This document shows, one piece after another, positions 20,447-64,000 of a DNA stretch of 64,000 nucleotides. Position numbers and translations under genes: made by a program. Position 1 is the first letter of the stretch, and every line of letters begins with the position of its first letter. The DNA comes from Psammoneis japonica (Eukaryota), in NCBI GenBank assembly GCA_008632985.1, contig QPGO01000008.1:228979-292978 (forward strand), read 5' to 3'. The notes under the pieces were generated by a model, which made no database searches, was not told the DNA's origin, and saw nothing but the letters and a program-made list of their open reading frames with translations.

Positions 20447-20556
20447 GGTGAGTGGACCGGATGAAAAGTGAAAAAAATAATGGTGCGATCCGCGGCGGTC
20501 ACTCTGTGACCATCGTCCGTCAGTCGTGCTTAAATCCGTGTGTCATAAACGCTCCA

Positions 20557-20855
20557 TGGCGACTGTGGCAACGTTGGCAACTCTGGGCAGTTTTAGCAAC
20601 TTTGATGACACACTTTGGCAAGCAACTTCGGCAGTTCTGGCAGCTTGGGCAGCTTGGGCAACTTTGACAACTTTTGCAGATTTGGCAAGGACTTTTTTGA
20701 AACTTTCACAGCTTTGGCGCATTTGGTGGCTTTGACAGCTGCTGCTTTCACAGCAGCTTTGGCAACTTTGAGGCAATTTTCTTGGCAACTTTGAAAGCTT
20801 TGGTGGTTTTGGCAGCTTTGGTGATTTTGGCAACTTTGGAAACTTGGGTGACTTT
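20557..20855. repeat. Degenerate 9-bp tandem array (consensus about TGGCAACTT)
   Basis: Repeated ggcaacttt/ggcagcttt units that read as PKL/QSC repeats in the ORF track. Confidence 0.85.
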
Positions 20856-21983
20856 GAAGAGAAGAAGGCTTGACAACTGCAGAGTGGCATTCTTGGCATG
20901 GTGTGCTCTGGCTGCTGGTCACTCTTTGTTTGTTGTTGCTCCTCTCGCTTTTGGAAATGGTGCGCCATGCACAGCATGACAAAAAGGATGATGTCATGAC
21001 TCAAACAGACAAGGGCCCAAAGCTCAAAGCTTCACAAGGATGATCAAGAAAAAAATGCCAAGACAGAAAAGTTGGGCATGTTGCACGTCTGCAATGTTCT
21101 TGCTCTCAACAAGAAGATGCGTGATTCACAAGAATCAAAATTTTCACAGACCTGTGACTGCACTCTAAGCAGGTGTCACATTTTTTTTTCAAAAACCAAC
21201 CTGGGTTGTCACTTCCACCATTTTGAACAATGTTCTGATGCTGGCTCATTTGCAGTCACAAATCTGGCTGCATTGCCAAGTTCTTGTGCTTGCCTCAACC
21301 TTGTCACACCACACATGACAATTTGACAATTCCAACTTCAACCTGGATCGCAGCATGGGGGTCAATTCAGCTGTGCACTTCATTCAACACCACTTTGAAG
21401 CTGTCAATTGACAATGAACATGCTGCAAACAGTTGTTGGGGTGCCAAGTCTCATCTGGGCTGAGGTCAACATGGTGGCAGTTTGATTTTCTGTTTTTGTT
21501 TTGGTCCACGATGCTTGTGCACTGCACTCTGTTTTGGCTGTGGAAGTGGATTTCTGCCAGTGAGCACCAAATCTTGTCTGCTGTCTGTTGCAGAAGATTG
21601 CAGAGAGTTGCTTTTGGATGCCATGCTTGTCCAAGTGCTGGTGCCAATGTGCTTGCTGAACAGAAGGATGAGAAGTGTTCTCCATGCACCCAACTCCAGG
21701 ACCCAGACTGTGTGGGCGGCAGTTGCAACCAAGAGAAAACATTTTTGCCACAAAGGATCACTCTCAGTGCACAACTCATGCAGCAGCAGGACAGCTTGAC
21801 AAGGCTGCAAGCCTTCAAAAATTGTGTGGCATGCAATTGAAGAAGCTCAAACTTGATTTCTGAATCACATCCCAGCCAGCTCTTCCATGAGATCCATTCT
21901 TGCTTGCTGAACTTTAGTTCAGAATGAAATGGAGGGTGGCTTGAACATTCATTGCTCAGCAACCAAACCTTTGAATGAGCAAC

Positions 21984-24390
21984 TCTGGAGTTTGGAAATT
22001 GAAATCTGCTGCTGTTGGGAATGGGCCACAATGCCACAAGACCAACCTTGCAATGCTCAGCCATGGCTCTCAATGCATCATCTGGGGTCCACCAGATGCT
22101 CTGCCAATGTCCTCAGCTTGCTTTTGTCTGATTCAGTTGGCTGGTGCTGTTGTGGGGTCACTTCATTCTGGAATTTGGAAGTTCAAGTCTGTTGCTGTTG
22201 GAAACAATGTGACATGGGGACACAGCACTTCAACATCCTCAACCTTGCAATGCTCAACAACAGCTCACAAAGTCTTGCCTGAAAGATGCCAAAGACCGCC
22301 AATGCCCTCTGCCAGCAGTCATCTGGTTGGTTGGTCCATCATGGGATCTCTGGAGTCAGGAAAGTCAAGGCTGCTGCTGTGGGGGACAAGGTGACATCAT
22401 GGGGCCACAACATCACAAGATCAACCATGCAATGCTCAGCCTCAGCAGCTCTTAAAGTGTCGCCAGGGGACCACTGGAGACCAGCAGTGTGCTCTGCTGG
22501 CAGCAGTTGGGTTGGTTGGCACTGTCGTGGGAATCTTGCACTCTGGAGTTGGGAAGTCACGTCTCTGCTGCTGTTGGGGACAAGGTGACAGGTGCCCACA
22601 ATGCCACAAGATGCCCCTTGCAGTGCCCCGACACAGTTCTTTGAGTGTCCCCTGTGGGGTCCACCCAAGATCAGCAGTGAGCTCTGCTGGCAGCCCAGTT
22701 CTTGGGTTGGTTGGCACTGTCATGGGATCCTCTTTGTTGCACTCTGGAGCTGGAAAAGTCAAGTCTGCTGCTGCTGTTGGGGACAAGGTGACATGAAGAA
22801 ACAGTGCCACAAGATCAACCTTTTGGTGCTCAACCACAGTTCTTAAAGTCACACATGGGGCCTGCCAGACACCGCCAGTGCCCTCAACCTGCAGCAGTTG
22901 TCAGGTCAGTTGGCATCATCATGACAGAATCCTTTCACTCTGGGGTTTGGAAATTCAAGTGTGCTGACCACAAGATTGGCTTGCAATGCTCAACCCCAGC
23001 TCTCCAAGTGTCCTCTGAGGTCCACCACACACAGCCAGTGTCCTTTGCTTGCTGTTGTCTGGTTGGTTGGCACTGTCATGGGGTTCTTTCAATCTAGAGT
23101 TTTGAAGCTCATGTCTGTTGCTGTTGGGGACAAGGTGACATGGGGGCACAACACCACAGGATCAACCCTTTTTTGCCTGGCCACAACAGCTCTTGTTGGA
23201 GAGTCCCCTGAAGTCAACCAGAGACCACCAATGTGCTCTGTTGGCAGTTGTCAGGTTGGCTGGGGCACTGTCATGGGATCCTTTCAATTTTCTGGAGTTT
23301 GGAAGCTCATGTCTGCTGCTGCTGCTGGGGACAAGGTGACATGGGGGGCCAACACCACAAGATCAACAACTTTGCAATGCCCAGAGCCACAGCTCTTGTG
23401 GCATCCCTTGGAGTCAACCAAAGACCACCAGTGTGCTCTGTTGGCAGCTGTTGGGTTGGCTGGTGCTCTCATGGGATCCTTTCAATCTGGAGTTTGGAAG
23501 TTCATGTGTCTGCTGCTGATGGAGACAAGGTGACATGGGGCCACAACACCACAAGATCAACCTTGCAATGCCCAGCTGCAGTTCTTGGAGTGTCCCCAGC
23601 AGCCCACCAGAGATCACCAGTGTGCTCTGCAGACAGTTGTTGGGGGGTGTTTGGTGCTGTCATGGGGTCCTTTCCATCTGGAGATTGGAAGTTCATGTCT
23701 GCTGCCATTGGGGATGAGGTGACATGGGGGCACAACACCACAAGATCAACTTTTTCCAAAGACCACTGGTGGGCTCTGTTGGCAGTTGTTGGGGGGTGTT
23801 TGGTGCTGTCATGGGATCCTGCACTTTGAAGTTGGGAAAGTCAAGTCTGCTGCTGTTGGGGACAAGGTGACATGGGGCCACAATGTTGCAAGATCAACCT
23901 TGCAATGCCCAACGCTCAACCACACTTCTCAAAGTGTTGCCTGGGGTCTGCCAGACACCGCCAGTGCCCTCAGCTTGCTGTTGTCTGGTGGGTTGGCGCA
24001 CTGTCATGGGGTCCCCATTCAATCTGGAGTTTGGAAGCTCATGTCTGCTGCTGTTGGGGACAATGTGACATGGGGCCACAACACCACAAGATCAACCTTG
24101 CAATGCCCAGCTGCACTTTTTGGAGTGTCCCCAGCAGTCTGCCAGAGATCACCAGTGTGCTCTGTTGGCATTTGTTGGGTTGGCTGGCACTGTCATGGGT
24201 TCCTTTCAACATGGAATTTGGAAGTTCATGTTTGCTGCTGTTGGGAACAAGGTGACATGGGGGCACAACACCACAGTGTCCTGTCACTCTGGAGTTTTTT
24301 GGAGAAGCTCATGACATTTGCTGCTGCTGAGGACAAGATGACATGGGGCCACAACATCAACCCAAGATCAATCTTGCAACTCCCAACAAA
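21984..24390. repeat. Diverged tandem repeat, ~190-200 bp unit, ~13 copies
   Basis: The core ctggagtttggaag-tcatgtctgctgctgttggggacaaggtgacatggggccacaacaccacaagatcaaccttgcaatgc recurs. Anchors lie near 22381, 22577, 22780, 23126, 23327, 23521, 23711, 23858, 24056 and 24244. Confidence 0.9.
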
Positions 24391-26909
24391 ACAGCTCTGA
24401 AATTTTTGCCTGCATGGCCTGCCAGGCACTGCCAGTCATGTTCTCAGCTTGTGCAACTGTTGGGTTGTTTGGCACCACTGTGCTTGTGTGGGTTGGCTGC
24501 AAAGATCAGCTGCAAAAGCAGAAGCTGCACCTGATGCAACAAACAAACAAACTTTGTGGACCAGCACAAACATGAAAGTTTCATTCTTGGCATGAGCCAA
24601 AAAAGATCATGAAAACTGAGACACAAATGTTGTTCAAAAACAGATGCGCTGCATCTGACTGGAGCAATGTTCAACATCCAGCTGCTGAACAAACAAGAGC
24701 TCACAACTGAAATGCATCAGGAATGAACAAATGCCAACAAAAGGATGCATCTTCAAGCCAATTCAAACAACCTGAAAATCACATGCAAATGAGTGCAACA
24801 AAATGTTTTTCAAATGATGGCATCTCTTCCAGAATGACACACAGGCAATGATCACCTGGCCAGCTGACTCAGCTCCATGGCAAAAGGCACATGAGCCATT
24901 GCCACCATGCAAACAATGCAAAAATGCAGGATTGATCCAAGCAGCATGCAAACAATGACAACATTGCAGGAAGGCACCCACAACGCCAAGGAATCTGCAC
25001 ACACCAACAAAGAAACACTTCAGGACATGGGAGCAGGCAGCTTGCCACAAACAACAACAAAGTGTCACTTTTCTTTTGAATTTTTTTGTTTTTTGAAACT
25101 CAGACACAAGTTGGCAAAAATGGCCAAAGATGAGAAAGAAAGTGCTGCTGCATTGAACACAGCAGGTGAGCAAAAACAGCAGCATTGTGCCACACTTGCC
25201 AAAAAACATGCCAAAATGACAATTTCTCTGCTGTCTTCCACCAGGGATTTTGCTTTCACATCTTGCAATGAAAAGCTGTCACAAAAGTCAACTCTCTTTG
25301 AAACATGAAAGACTGGAGCATGGTGCCATGCCAGCACAGCCAAGAACACCACCAAGGTGCAAGACAGACTGCAAGAGACAATGGGGCAGACATTGCAATG
25401 GAGTGACAGCACCAAAGAACAAGAGCAACAGAGGAGCATGCACCAAACATCGGACATTGCCAGGGCAGAAAGCAACATTGTCAGAAACCAAGAGTTGCAA
25501 AATGCAAGCCAGCTGACAAATGAACAACTCAAATTGTTGGAATGCTCCAGCCAAGGAATGACAACAACAACAACAAATTGGATTGACTTGGGCATGTGCG
25601 CACAGAAATGAACCATGTTTCATTTGTTGCAGTCTCTTGCTTTGCTGTCTTGTTGGTTGAGACAGCTGATGCTCTGACATTTGCAGCTGTTTTGTGCTGC
25701 AAACAAGTTCAAAACAAATCTTGTCAAAAGCCCACACACTTGCTGTGAGACCAAATTTCCTTGAGTCTGGTGGTTTCCTGTTTTGCCAACTCAGTTGATT
25801 GTTCAAATTGATTTGTTCACTCTGAACAAGCATTTGACAAAAACACAGGCTTCTCATTGAGCAAACTTCAACTCTGAGCAAGAGCAGCAGCTGCACTTTC
25901 CAGATGCAGAGGAGTCACATGTTGTTTTCCACTGACCAGGTGCACACAAGTGTCTCAACAACTCTGGCTTTGCAGTGAGCCTGGGCCACCCAAATCTGCC
26001 CAAGCTGCTGTGCCATGTCTGTTGTCAATGACATCAGAGCACTTGCAAGTTGAGTGTCAGAAAACCAAAGAGAAAGAAGAAACTCTTGAAATGACCTGAT
26101 GGATGGCTGCACCAAGCAATTTTAATTGTTGTGCCCAGATTCATTGGAAGGGCTTTGGTGCCAATTGGTTGTTGTCAGCCCTCAGGGGTGCAATGTGAAG
26201 TTGAGCACTGTGTCTGTTTGTTTTGTTGCATCAAAGGGCTCTTGTTGTTGCCCTGTCAAATCACATTTGGACATGTTGGGAGTGTCTCCCACAGCCACTG
26301 GTGTCCAAATCAAACAAGCTTGCTGGAACTTTGTGCACATGTGATTTGGAATGCAACAGCTCTGCACAAGGCAATCTAGTCATCCTTTGTGTTGATTTCA
26401 TCCTTGTGGCAAACCTGCTTCCTCTGCTTTCATGGATCTGCATTCCATGTTTGTTGATGGATTTTTCTGACCTTGCAATGTCATGATTGGCATGGTCATG
26501 CCAGCATGCTGCAATTTTTTGGTGCCACAAGAAACCCTTTTGTAGATGACTCCAAAAGACAAGCACTTGGTGGAAGCATGGAAAAATCCAGAAACTGGTT
26601 CATGGGAACAGCCGGCTCATTGGGATGTCACTTGCCAAACAACAAAGACAAAGCTTTTCATGACACCCAGAGAGCAAGTTTGACCGTGTAATTACAACTT
26701 GCACGTCATTCGCACTGTTACGCAACAAAGTTAGTGAAGCTTATTGAGGGTGCCAGTTCCAGTGCGCGTTGTAGTTGGAGTGTGAAAGTGCTGCGTCCGT
26801 AGGAGAGAGCCATCCGGATTTCAACTCCGGCAGCAATGGTAAAGAACATGGACACTAGTCTAATGGTGAAACATTCTATAAAAAGGATTGCTACGCAAGA
26901 TTTCCACAA

Positions 26910-30263: not shown

Positions 30264-32531
30264 TTAGTTCACACCAAGCTTGCGACTACGGCTTAGCTTG
30301 GACTTGATACCAGTCTCTTCGCCACCATATTTGTGTCCCTCGTTGGTTCTCACTTCACGCACAGTGCCCTTTCGACGAATGAGAGCCTTGCGGTATTGCT
30401 CTCGTTTCTTCACACGAGGATTGCGATTGAGTTTGGACTTGTGGGCCACCAAGCCCCTATTCTTGAGAATTGTCCGCCCAATGGCACGTTCTCCTTCCAC
30501 TTCCTCGTCCATTCCAGGATATTTCGGTGCAACCCGGTACAGGTCCTTCTTGTAGTCCTTCTTGGCTTTGACGTGCTTCTTTACTTGGCTGTAAAAATCG
30601 TCACCGTCGTCGCTCATTTCGTCCTCGTCATTGTCTTCACCCCCGTCCTTTTCTTCTCCATCGCTATCAAATAAGCCTTCTGCATCCATCATGGCCAAGC
30701 CTCGGCCAAGATTATCGTCTTGGATATCTTCTTCTTCTTCCTGAGCAGCTGGTGCCACACGGCGCTTTCGAGTTTGAGAACGCTGTTCGATAGCATTCAT
30801 GGTGGATGCTAGTGTTTTCGAAGCACGTTTAGCATTCTCATCTTCATTCCCGTCACTGCTTGGTCCGAAATGAGACCAGGAGATTCGCTTTCGCTTGGTC
30901 TTCTGCTTTTTATCGTCACCTGTTGCTGTTAATTCTTGCGGCCTCAAACCAAACCGCGCATCGTTCAAGACCCCTTGTGCAATTGCATCTCGGTCCTCCT
31001 CCTCATCCTGTTCCATATCATCGTCAGCGCCCGCGAGTTGTTCCTCTTCACTGTCGCTTGCTTCGGAAGATGTAAGTGTAGGCTGGTCCACCAAGTCGTT
31101 GTTCACCTCTTTTGAATCCTCTCCGTCTTTGCTCTCTTCCTCAACGTCTTCGGCCTGCATAAGCTCTGTAGCTTCCAACAGTTTCTCTAGTTGCTCCTTC
31201 AGACCTCCCGTTTCTTGAGTTTCTTCCACTTTGCTGTTGCATTTCTCCAAGAGAGCATTGTATTGTTGCAGTCGCGTCAAGATTGGATGAGAAAATGTGG
31301 CAGACGCCGTGTCGTCGTTTTCATTTTCGCTTGTTCTGCCTTCAACAATAGATACGTGGCGACGTTGAGTGCCGTGGATGCTTGGCAAGCTGATTTAGAC
31401 ACAAGATACTGCAATCCCATGGACGTTGTACCAATTTCCTTTTTACGCGAATACAAAATAAAAAAAAGCGTGTGAGAAGTTGCAAGGGCAGACGATGGTT
31501 GTATGTAAACGCCATTCAAGCGGAACGCTTTCATTAAAGGGTAGAAAGATCCGTAGGATATAGTTGGCGCCGTTGCTATTGCACTGCTTTTCTGCCGACC
31601 TGTCAAAACTTCCAACGCTAAAGGCGTTTCAAGTCGATGCGAGCAAAACGAGACTTTCAAGCATTAAATCATGCAAGATGGCGCTTCGTTTCGCATCATC
31701 TTTCCAAGCCAGCCTATCATGGGTGCTTTTGTTTACAAAGATTGTGCAAAAGATTCCTGCTCACCTCGATTGTTTCCTTGTCAGCCTTTAGTAGGGTTGA
31801 TGTCACAACTCTGGTCTATCGTCATAATCTTGTACAACCTTTTTAAAATGCTGCACCAAGGGCAGAACTTCAACGTGATGCGACTCTAGGAATTTTCGTT
31901 GCTCTCGTTTCGTCATTTTGTCCTTGCGTTTTTGAAGAGTGCTAGCTAGCTGTATCTCTTCCTTTTCCTTCTTTTCCTCCTCACCTTTGCTGTCTTCCAT
32001 TAGAAAATCGCCCTCGTCCATGTCTTCGTATCTCTTCTGAAGCACTTCTTGGGCCGCTTCTTCTTCCACAAACGCGTCATCCTCATCTTGTCCAAGTTCC
32101 AAATCAGCCGTATCGCCATGGTAGTATTGAGACTTGGAAGTTCCCCATCCAGCACATCCTCCTGTTCCTCCATATCCTCGTCATCATCATCAGAACTGCT
32201 CGACTCGATTGCAGCTTCTTGTTCGTTGCTCTCGTCTTCGCTAGTAGAACTACTACTGCTACTGCTATCGTCATCATCGTCTTGCACATCCAAGCCCAAA
32301 TCCAAAACTGCCTCGTCTTGCAAACTCTCATCATCATTGTCATCTTTGTCTTGTTGAAATTTAAGAAACTCTTCTTGTTCGCGTCGATTATGGTACTGAT
32401 CTACCTCATTGTACATAAAGTCGTCGTCGTCGTGCTGCTGCTTTTCACTTCCACCAGAACTACTACTACCAGACTCTTGTAGAGAGCCACATCACCCGTC
32501 TTGGCAGTATGACGACCGCCCTTTCTCCCAT
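30264..32531 (-). CDS. UTP3: Sas10/Utp3 small-subunit processome component; frameshifted in this assembly
   Basis: C-terminal RAIGRTILKNRGLVAHKSKLNRNPRVKKREQYRKA and YGGEETGIK, with an acidic N-terminus. Confidence 0.85.
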
Positions 32532-34505: not shown

Positions 34506-35512
34506 TGCTATTTTCGAAAGTCCTTTTCTGGAGAGCGACCGTAGCGTACTGTATGCCGTATGGTACTTCTATGACAGCAATTGCGTCATGGTCGGACGAT
34601 ATAGCGACTGCCGCCGCGTCGTGATGCGGATGATGATGGGCTGATGGTGAGGTGAGAGCGAGAGGCAAGAAATCGTGGAGCTTGGAGCTCGTAATGACGT
34701 CACAGGTTCGCAGATAGCACACAAAATGTGACAGTGGAAATGCCGTTGGTTTTCCCGCCACATTTTCAAAAAAATTTGAAACGGCGAACCCGGGAAAAGT
34801 GAATTCAGAATCACTTTGCTAATTGTTGCACGAAGCACACAAAAATCGTCATTTGACTTTTTGAAACACGTCGTCGTCGCGATTGCCATGGTTGCTTCAA
34901 TTCTGTGCTCAAGGTGAGTCGATCGTCTCGTTTTCGTTGCGCATTGGATCTGCTGGAGTTGAGTCATTGAATGTCATCCGCACACGACTGCCATGCAGAC
35001 CTGAAGGCTTGGGTCCTTGATGGTTTTCCTCTGTGCTGTGTTTGATTGCGCACATCTTTGGAAGTCGGTTCGAGGTGAAATGACGATTGCCTGTCAAAGC
35101 AGTCCGTGGTGTTCCGACGGAGATGCACCACGATTGCCAGCAAACTCGCTTCTTGCGTGTGCGCTGAATGCTTGTAAACATCCAATGTGGCAGTGACCTG
35201 GTGCCAACCAATGCACTTTTTAGTGCAACAGTTGTTCAAGCAGGAGCCATGTGAGGGCCAGCCTCTGCTTTCTTTCTTTTGAATGCACGCTGAACGCCTG
35301 CAGACGTCGTGGACTGGGACGGTGTGTTTGACAACCCCGAAGGGCAGCCTTTTTCGTGAAGGTTGTAAGGTGGTTCAGACCGCTTGAGTTGCTTGTTGAG
35401 CATCTCACATCTGATCCTCCGCAGGTTTGACACTCCTGTGGGTCGCCGGGCCGTTGTGTCAGCCATGTTCTCCATGTCCCACAGCGTTTGAAGATCTGCT
35501 TTGTTGCGTTTG

Positions 35513-35559
35513 TCTCAGTGGATCGTGTCATTCCCACTTAGATGCAGGGATCTCTGTCA
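35513..35559 (+). repeat. 5' LTR (47 bp)
   Basis: 45/47 identical to 41353-41399 and followed directly by the PBS. Confidence 0.85.
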
Positions 35560-35880
35560 GGTTGTGAGCAACGCTTGCACAGACGTGCAAGCAAGGCTCC
35601 TCCACCACTGCCGACAACACATTTTCCTCTCGTTTCGTTGTCGACGACACCGGCAGAGAGCGCTCACATCGTAAACTTTGCCACTCCATCGATGACAATG
35701 ACGTCTGCGTCTCTGATGCTGATTCACGCCATTGCTGTTTGTTTTTGCAGCTGCTTGCATGGGCATCAGTGCACCTTCTACGTGCACTGCGATCTCCTTG
35801 GGTGCACGCCACAGAGATCCGACACATGCTGCCGCTGCGTGGTGGAACGACATTGATTTTTATTTTCATTGTCGCTCACC

Positions 35881-38800
35881 ATGGCCCCTGCTAACAGCAC
35901 CCGTTCGAAAACGGCATCCTCTTGGCGGGACACTCTGTCGTCACTCCAGGCCGCTGTGTCACCCATGTCGGCTGACGACTCCCCTGTCTCTCCTCCTCCG
36001 GCTGAGACTGACCCTGCTTCTGCTGGTGATGCAACGGCAGAGGATGCTTCGGTGCCTCACGATGCGCCCACGGCAGAGGACGCAATCGAGGCGGAAGCCA
36101 CCATTGCGGTGAATGTCACTGCTCCGGAAGCTGATGCGAGCCCTGAACAGACGGAAACCCCTGCCTCTCTCTCAGAACAGCCGCCGCTGCCAGTGCTCCC
36201 AACCCTGCCTCCACGCTTGCCGCCTGCCCCACCTCCTGAATGGCCTCACACGCCTCCTGGCAATCCCCTGCAGCCTGAGGAACCTCCCAACCCTCCACAC
36301 TCTCCTCCGACATCGCCTCAGGCTCTTCTCAAAATGCACGAGAGTCATCTTAACTTGGCTGTTGCCCGCATCCACGAATGTAAACGGGCACTGGATGTCT
36401 CTGCGGAAGAAGTTTCCAGGCTCAAGCGGGAGCTGCACGAAATCCGTTTGGTCACGAACAATCACGCCTCGGCCATCACGGACCTCAAACATGCTCGTGA
36501 TTTCAACCTCCTCCGCACCAAGGTTCAGACCCAAATGAAAGCAACTGCAGATGAAGCCATCGCTTTGGCTGGCAACGCGGCCAACGAAGCTTTGGCAACA
36601 CGTGACACCCAATTCCTGGAAGCTCTCGACAAGATGATTGTTCCGGTTTACGAAGCTGCGGAAGCAACGACACTTGAACGCATCCGCACCACATCGACGA
36701 ATGCACAAAACAACATGGCGTCTTTTGTGGCGGACCAAACCAGCCGGCTGGAATCGGCTGCCTCGGAAGCTGTCCATGCTGTGGGTGACCACGTCGGTGC
36801 CACCCGTAAAAAGTTCCAGGCTCGGCTTAAGCACAATGTTAAACTGCAAACGGATGACCTGGATGTCACCCTTGCCAGATTGGACTCCACCAAGAACGCC
36901 ACACAGCAGATTGTTCAGAATGGCTTTGCTGTGGCCAACACAATGGCGGCCCTCTTGGAAGACTGTGAAAACGCTGCTGCACCCTCTTCTCCGGACACCT
37001 CGTCTTCTCCGGCTGCAGGCCTCCAACATGTCACGAAGGACCACCTGGAGGACATGCTGAGAGATGACTTGGACGGCCTCCAGGCTCAACTGACCCTCCA
37101 ACAGGACACCGCTCAAGTGCACGCCGGTGAGATCAAACACGCCAATGATGCATCTGAAGCTGCTCGGCGTGCGGCAGCTGGGGTTCAGAAGGAACTGGGC
37201 AAATGTCGATCGGAGTTGTCGAATCTGACAGCGAACTTATCACCCGCCACCCCAGATCCTGGCCCAATGGTCACGGAACGCATTGCTTCGTCATTGGACA
37301 ACATCGCTGATCATCTCGTGACTTCGCCTGATCCCATGATCTCTCTGGCACCCCCGGTCGTTGGCACCAATCATGCTGCTACGAGCAAACCGGCCTCCTC
37401 TTCGGAACAATGCTGCAACTCCAAAACCTTCCGTGAGACCCCCGGCCCCTTTCTCCATTCCATGGAACCAAACGACATCGCTCTGTTTCTCAAAGGTGTG
37501 TGTGCACGGTGCACCCTGGCCCATGTTCCCATCCGGGATCCGGACACTCTCACTCGCGCACAGTCCGACTTCTGTAACCCGATGTTAGTGAGTGCGTCCC
37601 ATCGTCAATGGCATGCGATTGAGATGTGTTCCAAATTGGTGCAGGATGATGCACTTCCGGATCACCAACTGTGTGACGGTTGGAAAAAGACATGCGCCGC
37701 ATCGATGGACAGTTTTGCGATCCTCAATCACCTCGCGGCTCTTGGACTTCCACCCCTGACGGGCAAAATGGTTGATGCCCCATCCTGGAAAGGTGACCTT
37801 TGTGAGCTTGTGGTGGAATTCACCATTTGCTTCACTGCCGTGGAAGCCTCACACGCCAAGACGGATCCCACTGCACCCCCGGCATGCTCGGAATGCCAGA
37901 AGTCTCTCAAATTGCTGGAGGCAACACCGGCTGGCACGCATGAACCGGTGCTCCTTCTCAAACACCGTCTGAATGAGATTGGGGACCCCGCTCCCCTGCC
38001 CCATGATCTCCACCTGGTCTCTCTCATCACACAGATTGACCCCAGGCTTGCTGCGAATGCCGACCCGACGGGATCTTTGAGTGCATTCTGCAGCCGACCG
38101 TCTCGCGGCCGCCAGCCCATTTCGCTGGATCGACAGCACACCCCATTCCAGCCCCGGAAGGGTCTCATTTGTGATGCATGCGGAGCGCACGGCCACAGTC
38201 ACACAACTGCACCAACCTGGCCCGCACTGCTTTGCTGTTGGATTTCATCAAGGCAAACACGGAGAAAGTTAAGTCCATTGTTTCTAAATGGCATTCTCAC
38301 AACCAACGCCGCAAGGACTCACCACGCCCGACTGCCCATCCATTTGTGGCGGATGTCTCTCATGACATTGCCAACCATGTGATGGATGAAACGGCCTCGG
38401 ACCTCCCATTTGCATCGGATGCACCTCCGGATTTTCTGCAAGCCGGCCGCATGCTCCATCATTGTGCGGTGAACGGCTTGCCAATGGCTGCGGGGCAGAT
38501 GATCGGGACGATTTGTCGTCTCTGCCTTCCGCTGACTCTCCGATCCCTCCTTCAATCTGTCGCTCATTCGCCTCCAGCATCCCCTGCTTTGACCAGCTAC
38601 CGGACTGGAGCCATTCAGGCCGCCCTCCCGATCTCGCCAGCACAGATTCGGATTCTACGATGTCGCGCTCGATGCCGGACGATGACTCGCTCTCCCTGTT
38701 GGACGAGTCATGGGCTGCGGCGGTCGAGGATTTTGCCGAAGATCCTCAGGCTGCTCTGCACTGCTTTGCCACAAAATTTGAGTCAATGGAGTCCGTCACT

Positions 38801-39595
38801 CCTCCCACCATTGCGCTTTCCACAGCTCTGGCACTGGAACATGAAACCGCGTTGCTGCCCACCTTTCACTGTGCCAGTGTTGGGAACCTTGCTCCGGACT
38901 CTCCAGTGGAAGCATCAGGGCAGACGGACACTGGTGCCAATTGCAGTGCCACATCTCAACGACACCTGCTTGCCAACTGCCGCCGCTTTGCGAATCCCAA
39001 ACCTGTGAGCACAGCTTCTGCACCCGACACCACCCTCATGGCACTGGGAGCAGGCATGTGCACCATCCGTGACATGGACAATCGCGAGCATGACATTCCG
39101 ATGTTCTGCTGCCCTGGGCTGGGTGAAACCCTGATTTCGCCTGATCATCTGTGCAGAGCATCCAAAGAACAACACAGCCAATGCCGTGCTTTGCACTTTC
39201 AGGATTCTGGTCACGGCACACTCACGGTGACTGATCGGGGCCGTTCCATCATCCGGTCTTTTCCGATGGTGCACACTGACGGCTTGTGGTTCATGCCACG
39301 GCTCTGCCCCGATGCACCACTGGCTGACGGACACACAGAACTGGAGGGTGCAATGCGCACGTTGCGGATGCATTCACCGACTTTGAGAGACCTCGGATGT
39401 GAGTTCGATGTGCCCGATCCTCCTGGCAAATACGAACAGCTTGATTTGGATGCCCCATCATCCCCTGTGCCCATGGACCCTGTCCCTGAGCATCCCAGCA
39501 TCAGCGAGGACCCATCCGATGTTCCCACACCCCACTTGTCCTCCCTTCAACGCACTCTCCAGGGTCACCCTGAATCTCCCCATTTGTGGAGCATG
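35881..39595 (+). pseudogene. Copia gag (zinc knuckle), aspartic protease and start of the RT remnant
   Basis: CDACGAHGH..C near 38170, DTGAN near 38930 and LQGHPESPHLW near 39560. Frameshifted, with one Tyr in the 837-aa ORF. Confidence 0.8.
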
Positions 39596-40042
39596 TGCAG
39601 CATGCATGCAGACAAAAGGTTGTTTTTGTCACGCCCTTTGTGACATTTAAAGGCTGTGACACGTCGCCGTGATGCATTGGCTCTTGTCAGCAGCTGTGTG
39701 TTGCACTCCTCCCCATGCATCACGCGTCCGTGCGGCTCTTTACTAACGTGCACTGACACTGCACGGTTTTGGCGGAACAGTGTGGGTGCGTGCGAAGGAA
39801 CACACAGAACTGCACAGAGTTTTGCGCGTTCGACAGTGATCAACATTGCTGCAGACAACTCCCACTCAGGGTTTCGAACCCCTGGCCTCCTGCCCAATGG
39901 TTGCGATGAACCACTCCGCTAAGAATTCATAATGCAGCATGCATGCAGACAAAAGGTTGTTTTTGTCACGCCCTTTGTGACATTTAAAGGCTGCAACACG
40001 TCGCCGTGATGCACCAACTCTTGTTGGCAGCTGTGTGTTGCA
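39596..40042 (-). mobile_element. TRIM-like miniature LTR element nested in the Copia RT
   Basis: 110-bp TG...CA direct repeats at 39596-39705 and 39933-40042, TSD CATG and a minus-strand PPT ggggaggag at 39706-39714. Removing it restores the RT frame LWSMHVDKII. Confidence 0.85.
39858..39925 (-). ncRNA. tRNA-derived module (Pol III A box and B box) inside the TRIM; not an intact tRNA
   Basis: The minus strand reads TAGCGGAGTGGTTCATCGC (D-arm/A box) and CAGGGGTTCGAAACCCTG (T-arm/B box). The anticodon arm is short and the acceptor stem does not pair. Confidence 0.65.
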
Positions 40043-40046
40043 CATG

Positions 40047-41340
40047 CATGTGGACAAGATCATCCATGAACACCTCCATCTTGCCCCGACCACCCACGAA
40101 CCATGCATCTGCAGCGGTGCAGTGAACGGTGAAGAGGTGCCATTTCTGCGTCAAGTCGATGATTTCGCCATCCATTGCAATGGACTCGGACGCCACATGT
40201 CAACACATGTGCGACATTGTGGATGACCATGTCACCGGTGGCAAGATCAAACGTCAGGGCTTGCTCACCCTGTTTCTTGGTCATGATGTGGAACAGACAA
40301 AAGACTGCATCCGCTGCACAGCACCTCCTGCGTGAAGCGGATCTTGGCCAACCATGCTTTCCTGACTGACGACAACCTCGGCCCGCCTCCCGCCATCCCA
40401 ATGCCCGGCGATGCCTCCTGCTCCAAATCCCTCGATGAGGCTCCCACTCCGACTGACTCCAAGGCACCCAAGACCCTTCAACAACAACAGGGTTTCTCTT
40501 GCCGGAAGGCAGTCGGTGAATTGATGTGGGCCATGGTCACCACCCTCGTGGATCTCAGCTGCTCGATCACCAAGCTGAGTCAGCTCAGCTCTAATCCTGG
40601 ACAACTGCACTGTGAAGGCGTGGAGCATTCTCTCCGGCACCTCAAGCATCACCCCGATTTCGGACTTACATGCTGGCATCAACAACCTGACACGACACTC
40701 CCCCATGCTCCTCCTCCACCTCCGATGACTGCACCCCACGACCGAGTGCTGCTGCCCCCTCAGGCTTCATCTCCTGCCAAGCTCACAGGCTACAAGGACT
40801 CTGATTGGGCTGCCGACATCCGACACCGCCACTCGATTGCCGGCATTGCATTTCTCCTCGCGGGAGCTGCAACTGCATGGAAGACCAGAGTGCAACCGAC
40901 TGTGTCAACCTCTTCATTGGAAGCAGAGTTTGTTGCTGCATCAGACGCCGGCAAAATGGCACTTTGTCTCCGGTCTGTCATGGATGAACTGTCGGTCCCC
41001 CAGATGCAAGCCATGTCAGCATGCGAAGACAATGATGCATCCCGCAAGATGGCCACCGCAAGCCAACCCACACGCCGCACCCACCACATTGACATCCACC
41101 ATTTTGCTCTTCAAGACTGGGTCAAATGCGACTTAGTTCGACTGGATCGCATTGACACATCAGCCAATTGCAGCGACATGCTCACCAAGAATGTGGCGTG
41201 CATCTTGTTTTTCCACCATTTGGATGCATTGAGTGGACGTCACCATCCCCTCCATGTGCTGGATGGCAGTGACAACACACCACTGCACTGTTCACCAGAA
41301 GAACAGTGCACCCAGACTCACAGGGGTCATGATTCTCCCA
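40047..41340 (+). pseudogene. Copia reverse transcriptase C-terminal half plus RNase H
   Basis: PTTHEPC, FLRQVDDFAI, GELMWAMVT, DSDWA, SSLEAEFVA, EDN, HIDI and SDMLTK motifs. Confidence 0.9.
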
Positions 41341-41352
41341 GTGTGGGGGGGG

Positions 41353-44227: not shown

Positions 44228-45622
44228 ATGAATGAATCCTTTCAACTCCCTGTCGATCTGCCTATAGAGCTCGACTGGAAGTATCGTGATGATATGAAGG
44301 AAGATCCAGAGGGAAGGCGAGCGGAAATTAGAGCCAGACTTCATCAACGCTATCCGTACCTGAACGAGCAACAAATTGACCTAGTCGGTGTACTCGACGA
44401 TGCAATTGATCACTCGGTACCTCAAGTGCATCTTCCTCGACTAAGAATCTTAAAATTTGAGGAGCCGCTGACATGCAAAGGATTTTTTGTTGCAATCAGA
44501 ATGCCACTTCTGGCTTATCTAGTCACAGTGTCTGTGGCTGTTGCTGCCGCCCTCTGGAACAATTCAGAGATACTGAAGATTTACCCGTACGCAATAACTC
44601 TTGTGACTTTTCTTGCAAGTGTCCCTTCCATCTTTCACCGATTCAGTCGCTATTATAAAATGGCGTTCTCTCTTTTGGGCAAGGCAAGGAAACGTGTGGA
44701 GCCCGCGATTGATGGCCTGGAACAACGAGCCTCCAACATGGTGTCTCTCGCTAGATCAAAATTAGATCAGTTCCTTGCTTCCATAAAGACTGAACTACGT
44801 CATGCTAGAATGGCAAAAGCGATTCTCAGGGAGGCAAATTATAATGCAGACATGATCCCAGATTGCTCAGACTTGGAAGGCTATCTTGACAATTCGGAAG
44901 CGCAGGTCCGCACCTCCATAGACAAGGCCAAGTCGACACTCAACGTTGATCAGTACATACCTTGGACGCTTCGAAGTCAGAGGCGATTTTCGCTGTGTGT
45001 GGTGTTTCCGATTCTAATTGTATTGTTAGGAATCCAAATGTGTTGCACGTGGTGGACAGGCGAGGCTTTGGAGCCAACAGAAAACAAGTGGGATCCAGTC
45101 ATTATCGCAAGCCAAACGTTTTTGATCGCACTCATCGAGACGGCTCTATCCTTTTTTGTAACACGGGCTAAGCGTGTCGTGGACTTTGTAAACCGAAAGA
45201 TTGGCACCATGAATAGGAGTGCCAATAGAATGTTGCGTAACAAGGTCGGCGATACGTTTCACTCCGTATTGGACCTTGCCATGATTCACGTCCGTCAGCG
45301 AGTGCTCAAGATTGTGGAGGCCTTGAATCAGGTACGAGGTGTAGGGATTGAGGCTCAGAGTGCTGCACATGGAGTTGAAGACAGCGCTGTGAAAGCCTCA
45401 GGCGCGATTCTTTCCATTGAGAACGCAATCGGGGGTGTTACGCAGAATGAGTCGCATGCTGTCTCAAATATGATGCAGCACGTCACTGATGCTTTGCATA
45501 CCGTAGTTGAGGGCATTGACAATTGTACTGGAGGTTTGATCAACTGTACAGACTATTTCACTCCATCGGGCGAAGCGTATGTGGAAACTGCATCTTCGGG
45601 TGCACGGCAGGTCGTGCTTTGA
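44228..45622 (+). CDS. Hypothetical membrane protein
   Basis: 464-aa ORF with two pairs of TM helices and helical soluble regions. Confidence 0.7.
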   Translation: MNESFQLPVDLPIELDWKYRDDMKEDPEGRRAEIRARLHQRYPYLNEQQIDLVGVLDDAIDHSVPQVHLPRLRILKFEEPLTCKGFFVAIRMPLLAYLVTVSVAVAAALWNNSEILKIYPYAITLVTFLASVPSIFHRFSRYYKMAFSLLGKARKRVEPAIDGLEQRASNMVSLARSKLDQFLASIKTELRHARMAKAILREANYNADMIPDCSDLEGYLDNSEAQVRTSIDKAKSTLNVDQYIPWTLRSQRRFSLCVVFPILIVLLGIQMCCTWWTGEALEPTENKWDPVIIASQTFLIALIETALSFFVTRAKRVVDFVNRKIGTMNRSANRMLRNKVGDTFHSVLDLAMIHVRQRVLKIVEALNQVRGVGIEAQSAAHGVEDSAVKASGAILSIENAIGGVTQNESHAVSNMMQHVTDALHTVVEGIDNCTGGLINCTDYFTPSGEAYVETASSGARQVVL

Positions 45623-59440: not shown

Positions 59441-61075
59441 TTACAACGACGGAGGCGGTCGTGCCTGCAGTGGAGTCGGATCTGTCAGTCGGACACGTCC
59501 CAATTCTGGTGCCTCATCCTTTAGCGGCGGCCATTTACCTCCAGCCATGACATGCTCGACCTCTGAGATAGTTCTGGGACAAATGGTGTAGTTCACGAAT
59601 CCATCTTTGGTAATCGCAACGACATCCTCAAGACGGACGCCTCCAAAATTGCGGAATTCAGAGAGAACGCCTTTGTCTAAATGTTCGCCCAGCATGGGTG
59701 ATGCCAAAGCTTGGTCCAACAGGTGATCAATAAAGTAACAACCTGGTTCAACTGTCAAAACCATGTCGACATTGAGAGAACGCGCCGTGCGAAGAGATCG
59801 TAGCCCAGGCAATTCGCTACGCGCTGGATGTCCGGGCAAATACCCACCCACATCATGCGTGTCTATACCGACGAAATGACCAAGACCATGCGGCATAAAG
59901 ACTGCTCCCAGCCTCATTTCCACCAATTCATCAACGGAATTGGTCCCTGCAATGACGATGCCCTCCTCAATCAAAACCTCTAAAATTGCACCTTCCGCCG
60001 CCTTGTGACAATCTACCCATGAGACTCCTGGTTTCAGCATGGAATACACCGCACGCTGTGCGTTTAGGACGGCAGTATAAATACGGGCCTGCCTATCTGT
60101 GAAAGTACCATTGGCAGGAAAGGAACACGTCACATCACTGCCATATCCAAAGTACTCTGCGCCCAAATCAAAGAGACAGACATCTCCATCGTGGATTTCA
60201 CGTAAATTTGGCTCTCCAGCATGACCATAATGGAGAACTGCAGCGTTTGGACCGCAACCACAAATCGGAGTGTATCCTACCAAGCGACATCCATGAGTAT
60301 AGTAGCAATAATGCCGAAACAAGGATTCGCACTGGTACTCCATCATTTTCGGAGTGGTATGTCGCATCGTGTAAACGTGACCCAACGACGTGAGTTCCGT
60401 CACGTGTTGCATCAATTGTAATTCTTCAGTGCTCTTGTGTACCCGGCATTCGGCCAAGATTGGGAAAAGAGTGGAAGTGTCTGCCAGAGATGCGAGTTTG
60501 GTGCTTTTCAAAGTGGGTGCCTGATAGAGATTACCCGAATCCGAGTTGCGCCCCTGCATTAGCAAAAGCTTTGGCGAACAATGGCGGCTACCGTTGAGCA
60601 TCCCAACCGAGCCATTGCCATTTGCTGTAGCAAGTTTGCTTTTTCCGAGTAATAAATCTTCTAGATAAGCCTCTGCTTCGTCCACGTAGAGAACTTGATC
60701 GACTTGGTAGAGCTCTTTCCACTCTTCGGGTGTCATGATTTTGCCCATAAATGTCGCATACTCCTGAGGCAATCGCGGAACAAAGAGTGCGGTTCCTCCT
60801 GTATCCACCTCAAGACATGCTGAGCAATCTGGCTCCTTCACTCCCCAAAGATACAAAAAGTACGATTCCTGACGAAAAACTGGCTCATGGTCCGTGTCGT
60901 TGCGGTTCTCGGAAGCACCGCCTTTGAGGAAGACAACACTTCGCTGCGGTACAGCGTCGCTTTCTCTTAAAGTGCGGACCAGCTTTGATCGATTTCCACC
61001 GTATAAGTCCTTGAGAGATATCTTGTATGTGTTCAACCCCATCGACATAAAGGGAGAGGTGGGAGGAGTCGTCAT
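59441..61075 (-). CDS. PEPD: Xaa-Pro dipeptidase (prolidase, M24B)
   Basis: FRQESYFLYLWGVKEP, LFDLGAEY, MPHGLGH..G.DTHDVGG, TVEPGCYF and GGVRLED motifs. The likely start is MTTPP at 61075. Confidence 0.93.
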   Translation of the reverse strand: MTTPPTSPFMSMGLNTYKISLKDLYGGNRSKLVRTLRESDAVPQRSVVFLKGGASENRNDTDHEPVFRQESYFLYLWGVKEPDCSACLEVDTGGTALFVPRLPQEYATFMGKIMTPEEWKELYQVDQVLYVDEAEAYLEDLLLGKSKLATANGNGSVGMLNGSRHCSPKLLLMQGRNSDSGNLYQAPTLKSTKLASLADTSTLFPILAECRVHKSTEELQLMQHVTELTSLGHVYTMRHTTPKMMEYQCESLFRHYCYYTHGCRLVGYTPICGCGPNAAVLHYGHAGEPNLREIHDGDVCLFDLGAEYFGYGSDVTCSFPANGTFTDRQARIYTAVLNAQRAVYSMLKPGVSWVDCHKAAEGAILEVLIEEGIVIAGTNSVDELVEMRLGAVFMPHGLGHFVGIDTHDVGGYLPGHPARSELPGLRSLRTARSLNVDMVLTVEPGCYFIDHLLDQALASPMLGEHLDKGVLSEFRNFGGVRLEDVVAITKDGFVNYTICPRTISEVEHVMAGGKWPPLKDEAPELGRVRLTDPTPLQARPPPSL

Positions 61076-61209
61076 GGTGCTTTCGGTGTTTGTTTGCCTT
61101 TGTGTTCTTTGTTCTCTTGTATGGTACAAGTATTGCTGAGGTAACCTGTAACCTACGCACAGGGTAGGTGGGAAGGGCAGACGCATTGCTGACGACAAAC
61201 GTACGTACG

Positions 61210-64000
61210 TGCCGGTGCGCAACAATGCAACAATGGTGCGGCAATGATGATGTGGTAGACCAGAAGGTCGTCGTGAAAAGGAACCATGCAATGTTGAGCT
61301 CAGTTCTGACAAAGAAGCACTGGCGGCAGTGGATCTGTTTGTACCCCGAACAACTGCAGTTGGAACTGGGGTCGACACTTCTGTCGGACTTGAAACTGGT
61401 TTTTTTTTTTTGCTGTCCACCTCCTCTGATCTGTGCTCCAGCACTTCTTCAAAATGGCATGCTGGGTGCCACACTGCTGGTGAGGAACATGGCAGAAAGC
61501 TGCATTGCCAAGCAGCACTGCAGCCACAATGTCATTGAAATTCCAACAGCTTCAACTGCACAGTGTGATCTCTGCCAAGTGGCTGAGAGTTCATTTCAGC
61601 AAAAGCCATTGCTTGCTTCGGCTTGCATGATGTGTGTTGCTGCTTGTGTTTGATTTTTGCAGCCAGCTGTTTTTCACAATGTGCTGCACAGAAGCATTGT
61701 CATCTCCTCTGCTTCTTTGTCAAGAGCATCTTGGGGGGCTGAGGTGAGCCTCTTGTGCATTGCAAGCAATGGTTTGAGTTCAGACATCATGCACACAAAA
61801 GAGCAGAGAAAAGGAGGTTTTTAGCTGAAAAAATTCAGAGTTGCAGGAGGAGGCACAAAGAAGCCAGCTGCGTCATCCAAATTGGGGCAACACACTGAGT
61901 TGAGTGTTGCACGTTGTGGCAGGGCACTGATGACAAATGCAGGCCAGCTTCAGAGTGTGCAATGATCATTGTGGTGGTTTCAGCACCAGCGCGAGTGTGC
62001 CAGCAGGAGGAAGCAGGCAGTGAGAGACTTGGCCAGCCTCTGTGCTTCTCAGAGAGGACCTTGCTCATCTCAGAATCACACCACAGTGCTGTCTTCCAAC
62101 CTTGGGTGTTGGCGCTTTTTGCACCCAAGCCTCTCCACAATTTTGGCATTTGCTGACATTTCACAGCCAACACATCATCCTTTGCTGTTCTTGCCTCAAA
62201 CCTGGAGCCTGAAGAAGCAGTGAGAGGCGCAAGCCAGCCCAAAACAAAGAGATCCAGTGCTGAGGATCTGCACAATCTTGTCATTGGCCCGCACTTGTTC
62301 TTTGATGAGCAAGAGCTGCCCTCTTTATGACTCAAATGATCAAGCCAACTTGAAAAGATTGTTGCGAATTTCAGCCCTGAGCCCATTTTTTGAGACCTCA
62401 GCACTGACCAGTTCAGGACATCTTGCAAAGTTGCCCTTGCCAAGCAAAGTGTCAATGTCACAAGTGTGCTGATGTTGTGTGCAAGACCATGTGATGACAC
62501 CTTGCAGGCCCATGGCAGTTGGCCTGAGCACCTTTTCTGCCATTGTGTGGTCTTGAAACAACAAAAGAAGAAGATTTTGCCCTGGCAAACTCAGCTCACT
62601 TTCCATGTGTGTCAGTGCCATGCTGCTCATGTGGAAATGTGTGTGGAAGCATCTCTCCAAAAATGTTGTCATGCAGGTGTCCAAGAATGGTGCACAGAAA
62701 GAATGCAGAGAGGAAATGAGCACATTTGGGGGCCCTGCTCCTCTTCCAGCACAAAACTCACATTTTGTGTGCAGAAATGCTGGCCTCTTGTGTGGTGCTG
62801 CAATGACTTGATGTGACAACACACAAAGCAGCTTGCCTTTTGAGTGATGGCAAGGCAGGATGACAATGCAGCAATGACACAAGAAACAGAGCAGCAGCAG
62901 TGGCAACTGGGTGAGTTGTGGCACTCAAAAGTAACCTCATGTTTGGGACAAATTTGTCCTCAAGAGCTATCTTCTTGTGTGCAAAGGCAGGTGCTGCAAC
63001 AGATTTGTGAACTCAAGAGAATTTGTTCACGCAAACCCAAATGCATTGTTTGAGCAACAGTTGTCAACTGTGGTCTCATCCAGATTTGTGCACATGCTCA
63101 TTGTTTTAACAAAACACTCTGTGGCTCTCTCGCACAAATGGTTTGGTGTGGCAGGAACAACATCTGCAGTTTTTTGACAAAAAGTGCTGGTGGCAACAGC
63201 TCCAACATCTGTTTGTGCTCCAAGCATCAGCTTTGGAGCTGGGGTTGGCACTTCTGTGGAACTGGGGTTGGCGCTTTTTTGTCTGACATGAAATGGTTTT
63301 TTTGCTGTCCATCTCTGCTCTCTGCTCCCCACTTTTTCAAAGAGGCGCCACCCATGGGTGAGCAGGAACAAAGCAGAAAGCTGCACTTTCTAAGCAGCAT
63401 TGGAGCCATGTTGCCAAAGAAGTGTCCAAGCCAACAGTTTCAACTGCACTGTCATCTCTGCCAAGCAAGCTCATTTGCTTGAGCAAAAGCCAATGTTTTG
63501 AGTTTGCATGAGTGCTGCTTTTCACAACATGAGCTCTGTGCACTGCATGCCAGCATCATCTCCTCTGCTTCTTTGTCAAGAGCATGTTGGAAATGGAGAT
63601 CAGTCTTGTGCATTGTGGATGTGATGGCTCAAGTGCAGACATTGTGCACTTAAGAGCAGAAAAAAGTTTTGAAGTTCAACAGATTCAGGGTTGCAAATGG
63701 CAACAACAAAGATGAAGAAACAGCTCACTGAAACACAAAGAAGTCAACCACACCAGAGTTGGAACAACACCCAGAATTGAGTGCTGCACACTCTGACAGC
63801 GCACTGATGACAAATGCAAACCAACTTCAGAGTGTGCAATGATTGTCATGGCTTCAGTGAATGCCAGCAGTGAGAGACTTTGCCAGTCTCTGGAATGTGC
63901 TCCAAGGGAACAACTCGCAGTGGTGGCTGCAGACACGGCAAGAGAAAAATGCCACACCTGGCTCACTGCTGAGCCTTGGTGACCTTTTTCCCGCAGCTTT
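61210..64000. repeat. TpA/CpG-depleted repeat block 3 with a diverged ~1.9-kb direct duplication; continues beyond the window
   Basis: About 61380-62050 is similar to about 63280-63890, for example catctcctctgcttctttgtcaagagcat in both. Only about 7 TA after 61350. Confidence 0.75.

Follow-up and report, generated by a model that had tools for sequence, protein, structure and literature searches.

The 64,000-nucleotide stretch of the genome of the diatom Psammoneis japonica that we analysed (contig QPGO01000008.1; the window, hereafter, means this whole stretch) consists of ordinary genes and of three sharply bounded islands of transposon and satellite DNA, from which the dinucleotide TpA has nearly disappeared. 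The genes lying between the islands encode a DAGAT, a dihydroxy-acid dehydratase, Sas10, a glutaredoxin-domain protein, a WLM protease, the condensin Cnd3 and an aminopeptidase P. Among the protein matches of the aminopeptidase P, the 10 that carry a full organism name all come from diatoms (55-63% identity), whereas the best ones (67%) are metagenome proteins; one condensin match is from Thalassiosira. Since nothing above 67% identity was found, the species is absent from the protein collection searched and is distinct from the alga Bigelowiella natans discussed below. Inside the islands, we found the remains of a Copia-type LTR (long terminal repeat) retrotransposon, an LTR-like element and a satellite array. 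A combination of analyses (conserved tyrosine columns, paralogous copies, satellite monomers and forward simulation) showed that TpA has been converted there to TpG or CpA, after insertion and on both DNA strands.

The TpA-poor blocks and what they contain

The islands were delineated by scanning the observed/expected (O/E) ratio of TA in 1-kb windows across the stretch. They lie at about 20595-26690 (block 1, between two genes), 34720-43917 (block 2) and 61210-64000 (block 3, which continues past the end of the stretch), their edges resolve to ~100 bp, and together they hold 58 TA, versus ~655 expected at the flanking rate. Per 1-kb window, the TA O/E ranges from 0.00 to 0.04 between 21 and 26 kb, from 0.03 to 0.16 between 35 and 44 kb, and from 0.04 to 0.05 between 62 and 64 kb (0.00-0.16 altogether), whereas it is 0.39-0.88 outside the blocks (172 overlapping flank windows; minimum 0.39, mean 0.61). 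The genes flanking the blocks (DAGAT, dihydroxy-acid dehydratase, Sas10, WLM, Cnd3 and aminopeptidase P) also show values of 0.39-0.88.

When compared block by block with the numbers expected at the flank rate, the TA counts are 9 versus 250 in block 1 (20600-26690, with zero between 23095 and 26123), 35 versus 198 in the Copia part of block 2, 7 versus 98 in the remainder of block 2, and 7 versus 109 in block 3 (61390-64000). Block 2 (34820-43915) thereby totals 42 TA, with a TA O/E of 0.04-0.11 and a GC content rising to 0.55-0.57. Blocks 1 and 3 are virtually free of both TpA and CpG, the latter being nearly gone (24 CG and a CpG O/E of 0.07 in block 1; 17 CG at 61390-64000 and 0.11 in block 3), whereas block 2, in which TpA is erased, has partly kept its CpG (moderately low O/E of 0.56-0.73). 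TG and CA are in excess (O/E of 1.57-1.89 in the blocks, namely 1.89 in block 1 and 1.87 in block 3, versus 1.19 in the flank), and AA/TT is not depleted (1.06-1.27 versus 1.11). An earlier reading of this DNA, made from the letters alone (the sequence-only reading), had described the TA deficit of the three blocks, with about nine TA in block 1, none between about 23097 and 26122 and about seven in the last 2.6 kb, together with the TG/CA excess and the retention of AA/TT, and had overlooked the loss of CpG; all its statements on these points are confirmed, as are its identification of a Copia and of a ~189-bp satellite, and its view that unrelated sequence classes are hit in islands confined between ordinary genes.

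Block 2 harbours the Copia element, an internally deleted LTR retrotransposon on the forward strand at 35499-41431 (approximate limits, taken from contig joints), nested in an older repeat. A coding remnant of it, the C-terminus of the reverse transcriptase (RT) and RNase H, was located on the forward strand at 40041-41270 by tblastn of Copia relatives. As these relatives (P0074-P0095) match only 38906-39295 (polyprotein amino acids 10-145) and 40041-41270 (amino acids 876-1282), the element lacks the integrase and most of the RT. Related polyproteins are 44-48% identical to the open reading frame (ORF) of the RNase H end, and the terminal matches of the element are short (35512-35568 and 41352-41408) and differ by one CA/TG double mismatch. 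The nesting follows from sequencing contigs of other copies, which jump from 35498 to 41432-41448 and omit the ~5.9-kb Copia; the insertion is therefore absent from other copies of the repeat around it, or from the other haplotype. The contig 34939-35498, which bridges the Copia site, differs from the window by 45 bases and 9 gaps over ~555 bp, and most of the differences listed for it are TA or CG in the contig versus TG or CA in the window.

The place of the missing integrase and RT is occupied by a small insert (39596-40043) flanked by 111-bp direct repeats that are 93% alike. The bin 39341-40007 shows a summed contig depth of 61612, versus ~57 for single-copy DNA, which indicates that part of the insert is an extremely abundant short repeat. 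Since it retains 6 of the 42 TA of block 2, the insert may be younger than its host element. Neither a tRNA nor an Rfam match was found in it, and the 64-kb window as a whole contains no tRNA gene and no Rfam family.

Block 1 contains the satellite array (21982-24400), which TRF, self-BLAST and monomer mapping resolve into ~12 monomers of a ~189-bp unit, 65-85% alike. In block 3, self-BLAST revealed direct repeats at 61361-61983 and 63257-63857, which delimit a TRIM/LARD-like element (terminal-repeat retrotransposon in miniature or large retrotransposon derivative; 61361-63857). The TRIM proposed by the sequence-only reading stands as far as this LTR-like pair of ~600-bp direct repeats is concerned, and no further, the ~1.3 kb enclosed by the repeats being without coding match. 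The aligned repeat pair shows 410 identities, 88 transitions and 64 transversions, with CA/TG as the commonest adjacent double mismatch (10 out of 59), and is too diverged to yield a clean substitution spectrum.

The block ORFs are long on both strands, for example 841 amino acids within 35857-38382 without Pfam match; such spurious ORFs result from the erasure of TAA and TAG, which leaves TGA as the only stop codon. A Pfam search of 17 and then 37 ORFs, mostly from the blocks, returned no significant match (the best was Pol_BBD, E = 0.064), and the decayed coding DNA that the blocks had been said to contain was therefore not verified.

Direction, context and strand of the changes

Two observations on composition indicate that the missing TA were converted rather than never acquired. 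First, TA, CG, TG and CA, the four pyrimidine-purine steps, together keep a constant frequency: 0.242 for the flank, and 0.241, 0.252, 0.245 and 0.242 for the four parts of the blocks. This argues that transitions replaced TA in situ, along with CG in the case of blocks 1 and 3. Second, a forward simulation, in which TA and/or CG were converted in flank DNA and the resulting dinucleotide O/E compared with those of the blocks, approached each of them in turn. The conversion of all TA and all CG gave 1.95 for TG/CA and 0.00 for CG (observed in blocks 1 and 3: 1.88 and 0.08); that of TA only gave 1.53 and 0.78 (observed in the Copia part of block 2: 1.57 and 0.73); and that of TA plus 35% of CG gave 1.67 and 0.54 (observed in the rest of block 2: 1.67 and 0.56). 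The TpA loss is near complete everywhere, and the CpG loss grades with the apparent age of the blocks; of the two processes, that acting on TpA is the faster.

The direction of the change was assessed at the 222 columns that are conserved among the Copia relatives. The 11 conserved tyrosine columns, two of which belong to the protease remnant at 38906-39295, now read Cys (TGY codons) in seven cases, His (CAY) in two, and Tyr and Phe in one case each. At the 11 conserved arginine columns, Arg is still present in five cases, His has taken its place in four, and Cys and Leu in one case each. Of the other 200 conserved columns, 149 retain their residue (Tyr versus the rest: Fisher p = 2e-5). The satellite tells a similar story, CA/TG being the commonest adjacent double difference between monomers (9 column pairs, versus at most 2 for any other). 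One of its columns holds TA in two monomers, TG in four and CA in three, while another holds CG in three, CA in seven and TG in one.

Other copies of the repeat in block 2 provide a further comparison, which covers 40 of the 476 variants recorded against the sequencing contigs (22 within block 2 and 18 in the flanks). Among the 22 listed in the block, 15 have TG or CA in the window where the other copies have TA (8) or CG (7); two correspond to a single TG-versus-CA site, one goes in the reverse direction and four are unrelated. The same classes, forward versus reverse, amount to 5 versus 3 among the 18 listed in the flanks. At the sites listed in 35051-35395, TA or CG accounts for most of the sequencing depth, against TG or CA in the window (for example, 941 out of 1153 and 1845 out of 1965). 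As most of the depth at several sites is of the TA or CG type, the majority of the repeat family appears unmutated, and the window copy mutated.

The Copia family is not intrinsically poor in TA, as judged from the normal tyrosine content of its relatives (3-4%) and from the TA O/E of related metagenomic Copia loci, which is 0.47-0.99 in 79 out of 79. Furthermore, five of these loci (L079, L065, L071, L067 and L059) combine a CpG O/E of 0.11-0.26 with a normal TpA (0.59-0.74), and low CpG occurring with normal TA implies that CpG decay is separable from TpA loss.

The 58 surviving TA reveal a context rule. Their 5' base is T in 27 cases, C in 20, G in 9 and A in 2, i.e., a pyrimidine in 47, and their 3' base is A in 31 cases, G in 11, C in 10 and T in 6, i.e., a purine in 42. 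Relative to the flank density, 0.4% of RTAY, 6% of RTAR/YTAY and 24% of YTAR have survived, so that the order of sensitivity is RTAY > RTAR/YTAY > YTAR. Because of the symmetry of the motif, the survivors alone fit a purine-before-T and a pyrimidine-after-A rule alike; the similar gains of RTGR (10.4 per kb) and YTGY (8.7 per kb) in the Copia suggest that both neighbours may matter. CpG has a context of its own in blocks 1 and 3, where, relative to flank density, RCGY has survived best (19%) and YCGR least (5%), as if a C preceded by a pyrimidine were more mutable. In the same two blocks, the TG gain is +36 per kb for YTGY versus +6 per kb for RTGR.

Both strands are equally affected. The TG:CA counts are near equal, with 718:714 in block 1, 627:633 in the Copia, 246:276 in the rest of block 2 and 309:298 in block 3. 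The fraction of neighbouring TG/CA that share the same state is 0.46-0.51 in the blocks (0.471 in the Copia) versus 0.51-0.53 in the flanks, and no strand-coordinated run of TG or CA was found in the blocks.

The contigs used above derive from one sequencing run of the organism, which contains 78% of the sampled words of the stretch and gave contigs at a word depth of ~57-fold; no RNA run was listed among those containing the stretch. The contigs reproduce unique block sequence closely, with no base difference and three gaps at 26001-26501 (block 1), no difference at 41439-43010 and three at 42988-44337 (block 2). Their depth shows the Copia and its surrounding repeat to be multi-copy (200-1800), while the parts of the blocks at 41.4-43.9 kb and 26.0-26.7 kb are near single-copy. 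In the repeat at 34.9-35.5 kb, TA and CG persist in the majority of the other copies at the sites that were lost here. Since other copies are spared and parts of the blocks are near single-copy, the targeting looks positional rather than homology-driven, and the restriction to repeats claimed by the sequence-only reading is not demonstrated. In ordinary sequence, at 31471-31747, the window and a run contig show six single-base differences within ~280 bp, which may be allelic or strain variation.

Proposed mechanism and rival explanations

Any process invoked here has to produce what was observed, namely the outcome and its direction, the strand symmetry, the context rule, the sharp limits and the sparing of most other copies. 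We regard it as highly probable that a real, domain-targeted TpA process has operated. Our best overall explanation, to which we give somewhat better than even chances, combines the following steps. A locally targeted hypermutation would have acted at the DNA level on the three islands, which consist of transposon and satellite DNA and contain no gene. It would have turned TpA into TpG or CpA almost to saturation, the A of TpA being the position hit on both strands, with A:T becoming G:C. A slower second process would have turned CpG into TpG or CpA in the same domains, most simply through the deamination of 5-methylcytosine in methylated transposons, and would have reached completion in the older blocks 1 and 3 while being partial in block 2. 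The agent might be a zinc-dependent DNA adenine deaminase with a TadA/ADAT2 fold, the product of which, hypoxanthine, pairs with C; this identity is tentative, and its chances fall slightly short of even. Recruitment may depend on a silencing mark that also directs CpG methylation, and the tempo would be that of many small independent hits across generations, with no single burst. The process would destroy coding capacity (Tyr to Cys or His) and remove A/T-rich signals, and it would create no stop codon, TAA and TAG vanishing and long spurious ORFs being left behind. It would be of the same kind as the TpA hypermutation observed in mutation-accumulation lines of Bigelowiella natans.

Several points weigh against this explanation. 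First, the 64-kb window contains no effector gene and no deaminase domain, as the sequence-only reading had also stated for the effector. Second, the evidence consists of end states, and the process could be extinct. Third, the contrast in direction between block and flanks is weak when taken alone (Fisher p = 0.09, from 40 of the 476 variants). Fourth, a single sample, probably the assembled one, with an unrecorded platform, is the source of the run contigs, and these are not fully independent. Fifth, the related Copia loci, which belong to unidentified metagenomic hosts, were retrieved by means of intact peptide motifs, a route that is biased against decayed copies. Sixth, an enzyme reading double-stranded DNA would account for the palindromic RTAY preference, and for the roughly equal gains of RTGR and YTGY, just as well as a deaminase of single strands. 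Seventh, blocks 1 and 3 have an ApT O/E of 0.73 (0.95 in the comparison) and a GpC O/E of 1.33 (1.05 in the comparison), where the simulation gives 0.94 and 1.10. We had expected this skew to be a by-product of TA conversion, which the simulation failed to reproduce; it may reflect the ancestral composition of the satellite or a third, weaker process.

The main rival is a route that begins with thymine. A dioxygenase of the TET/JBP type, or another enzyme, would modify the T of TpA in silent chromatin, and the resulting 5-hydroxymethyluracil or 5-formyluracil would mispair with G, leading to T to C changes. 5-Formyluracil is mutagenic towards G pairing, and the 5-hydroxymethyluracil of dinoflagellates is reported to favour TpA. 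This route fits the sequence data equally well, given that the change of TpA to CpA or TpG is symmetric, so that the sequence alone does not tell whether A or T is the target, and the palindromic RTAY preference suits an enzyme that reads duplex DNA. We nevertheless hold it to be unlikely, because adenine deamination is how the signature has so far been explained in the sole experimental system that shows it, an explanation which is itself a proposal of the main text of that study (bioRxiv 10.64898/2026.01.13.699255).

The losses might also be explained without any dedicated system, if TpA were the most mutable step in unrepaired, late-replicating heterochromatin, where very old repeats would drift to TG and CA. 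Blocks 1 and 3 are indeed old, as seen from the 88 transitions and 64 transversions of the block 3 repeat pair and from monomers that are 65-85% alike. The Copia speaks otherwise: it is still 41-43% identical to its relatives, with 149 of the 200 other conserved residues in place; yet of its 11 conserved tyrosines, 10 are lost (nine of them to Cys or His), and ~82-93% of the expected TA is gone from block 2. An element that is still alignable while its Tyr and TA are mostly lost points to a TpA rate far above background. In addition, the edges are sharp to ~100 bp and other copies of the same repeat retain TA. In B. natans, the regional rate is ~1000 times the background and varies between lines, according to the main text of the preprint (bioRxiv 10.64898/2026.01.13.699255). 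Drift therefore appears to us still less probable than the thymine route.

Three further explanations are each very unlikely. Error-prone repair by a Y-family polymerase recruited to methylated repeats (Pol-eta, with its WA to WG signature) had been listed as a candidate by the sequence-only reading; it would produce the right change, A to G, and TA is one of its two WA motifs, but the other, AA, is undepleted (AA/TT O/E of 1.06-1.27 versus 1.11), which contradicts it, and the constant pyrimidine-purine sum leaves little room for changes beyond TA and CG. Even less can be said for an ADAR-like A-to-I hyperediting of retroelement transcripts that would then have been reverse-transcribed and inserted anew. 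The surviving TA are enriched for a 3' purine, which is opposite to the 3'-G preference of ADARs, which are metazoan enzymes; the satellite and the non-coding flanking repeats are affected equally; and the TG:CA ratio of 627:633 in the Copia, with no strand coordination, contradicts it. The presence of a retrotransposon in block 2 and the 5' U favoured by ADARs, as quoted in the B. natans preprint (bioRxiv 10.64898/2026.01.13.699255, main text), are what speaks for it. A sequencing or assembly artefact, by which modified bases in repeats would be miscalled so that TA and CG are read as TG or CA, is hardly more credible. No platform is recorded for the assembly or for the runs, which come from one sample; against the artefact, the TA-free sequence reappears in contigs of ~57-fold depth, pieces of 0.5-1.6 kb showing 0-3 differences, TA and CG are seen in other copies in the same data and are thus readable in that context, TG in one copy faces CA in another at the same column (satellite monomers and Copia terminal repeats), and the large deletion and frame breaks of the Copia are typical of real decay.

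The least credible alternative, an intrinsic composition (foreign or specialised DNA that never bore TA, or from which selection removed it), has only the composition itself in its favour. Against it, the deficit is common to three unrelated sequence classes, the relatives have normal Tyr and TA (79 out of 79 loci, which contradicts it), copies in the same genome carry TA at the very same sites, and Tyr was replaced by Cys or His at conserved positions of catalytic domains.

Comparison with known systems

The functional analogue is the repeat-induced point mutation (RIP) of ascomycete fungi, with which the preferred explanation, targeted TpA hypermutation with slower CpG decay, shares several traits: transitions at one dinucleotide, restriction to unwanted DNA, permanent disabling of transposons and a strong dinucleotide skew. 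RIP turns CpA into TpA, lowers GC and makes stop codons, whereas here TpA is destroyed, GC goes up and TAA and TAG vanish; neither the TpA excess nor the GC loss expected from C to T changes at CpA was found (block 2 has a GC content of 0.55). Under RIP, moreover, every copy of a duplicated sequence is mutated; here, TA and CG persist in the majority of the other copies (from 40 of the 476 variants). The RID/DIM-2 machinery is fungal.

The decay of 5-methylcytosine had been set aside by the sequence-only reading, yet CpG loss does accompany TpA loss in blocks 1 and 3. This decay explains why CpG has become TpG or CpA in these two blocks, as well as the partial loss in block 2 and the Arg to His or Cys replacements (5 of 11 columns). 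It cannot remove TpA and leaves the TpA loss unexplained, other dinucleotides being expected to stay untouched. The CpG methylation of transposons in the diatom Phaeodactylum depends on DNMT5a, as described in PMC9998398. As for the two other known processes, the coordinated one-strand A to G runs of ADAR hyperediting and the joint targeting of TA and AA by Pol-eta were not found in the blocks. TadA/ADAT2-type deaminases come closer, as they target an A preceded by a T (U33-A34 in tRNA) and their deamination gives A to G, as here. Their natural substrate is a tRNA loop, and a palindromic RTAY preference is not one of their known properties. The ADAT2 of amphioxus reportedly edits DNA (PMC10354150, as cited in the B. 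natans preprint).

The closest counterpart is found in the chlorarachniophyte B. natans, where the mutation rate of two integrated viral regions is ~1000 times that of the remaining genome in mutation-accumulation lines (Mettrop et al., bioRxiv 10.64898/2026.01.13.699255; cited from its main text throughout). In these hypermutable regions, 230 of 231 mutations are A to G or T to C, all the AT to GC changes occur on TpA, and an ADAT2-like protein is proposed as a candidate agent (bioRxiv 10.64898/2026.01.13.699255). [quoted passage not shown] The numerical cluster rule of that study, when applied here, picks out windows 21001-26001 (6), 39001-43001 (5) and 61001-63001 (3); window 35001 qualifies alone, and windows 36001-38001 fall short of the second threshold (1.45-1.47).

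Similarly to B. natans, P. japonica shows changes of TpA to TpG or CpA on both strands, limited to particular regions that do not resemble the host genome, while ordinary genes are spared; here, the changes are deduced from end states. The two cases differ in several respects. First, B. natans is a rhizarian, whereas P. japonica is a diatom (Stramenopila). Second, the targets are a giant-virus/virophage insert in the former, and a Copia LTR retrotransposon, an LTR-like element and a satellite in the latter. Third, the TA O/E of 0.02-0.11 found here is near saturation, versus a Rho of 0.45 in the B. natans virus region (as given in the preprint's main text). Fourth, a CpG component is also present here, and this CpG decay as well as the RTAY/YTAR context rule come in addition to what the main text of the preprint describes, in which the words 'CpG', 'flanking', 'trinucleotide' and 'diatom' have zero occurrences. 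No report of TpA hypermutation in diatoms, of its context rule or of its coupling with CpG decay was found in the literature outside subscription journals and the supplements of the preprint.

TpA-targeted A:T to G:C hypermutation having been described once before, in a single rhizarian alga, a saturated end state in a diatom means that the process is no curiosity of one lineage and may be a widespread way of wrecking unwanted DNA, which hits ordinary transposons and satellites beyond giant-virus inserts. The search for the enzyme gains two handles, the RTAY > YTAR rule and the co-extension with CpG decay, and the data suggest a positional (chromatin) rather than a homology targeting. Model diatoms that are transformable and amenable to CRISPR could allow the effector to be searched for, if they show the signature, and a natural editor that converts A to G or T to C in DNA in a context-specific manner would be of interest to base editing. 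There is also a warning for annotation: blocks without TAA and TAG give spurious long ORFs that mislead gene finders, and homology-based transposon annotation is defeated in them (no significant Pfam match).

A bolder and rather doubtful extension, which we mention as a possibility, is that diatoms and chlorarachniophytes, perhaps the whole SAR group (stramenopiles, alveolates and rhizarians), might share an old base-editing defence that is guided by chromatin, erases TpA in silenced insertions in a manner opposite to RIP and operates independently of homology. Its editor would read double-stranded DNA (RTAY), like a methyltransferase or a glycosylase rather than a moonlighting tRNA deaminase, and the co-extension with CpG decay would mean that the heterochromatin mark which attracts DNMT5 methylation recruits the editor too.

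The sequence-only reading was essentially correct about the mutations themselves. It had presented the defence system as a candidate new one, and the signature was already in the B. natans preprint (bioRxiv 10.64898/2026.01.13.699255, main text). Together, these comparisons show that the signature of the three P. japonica blocks matches the TpA hypermutation of B. natans: it is not categorically new, and represents a second, distant lineage of a recently described kind.

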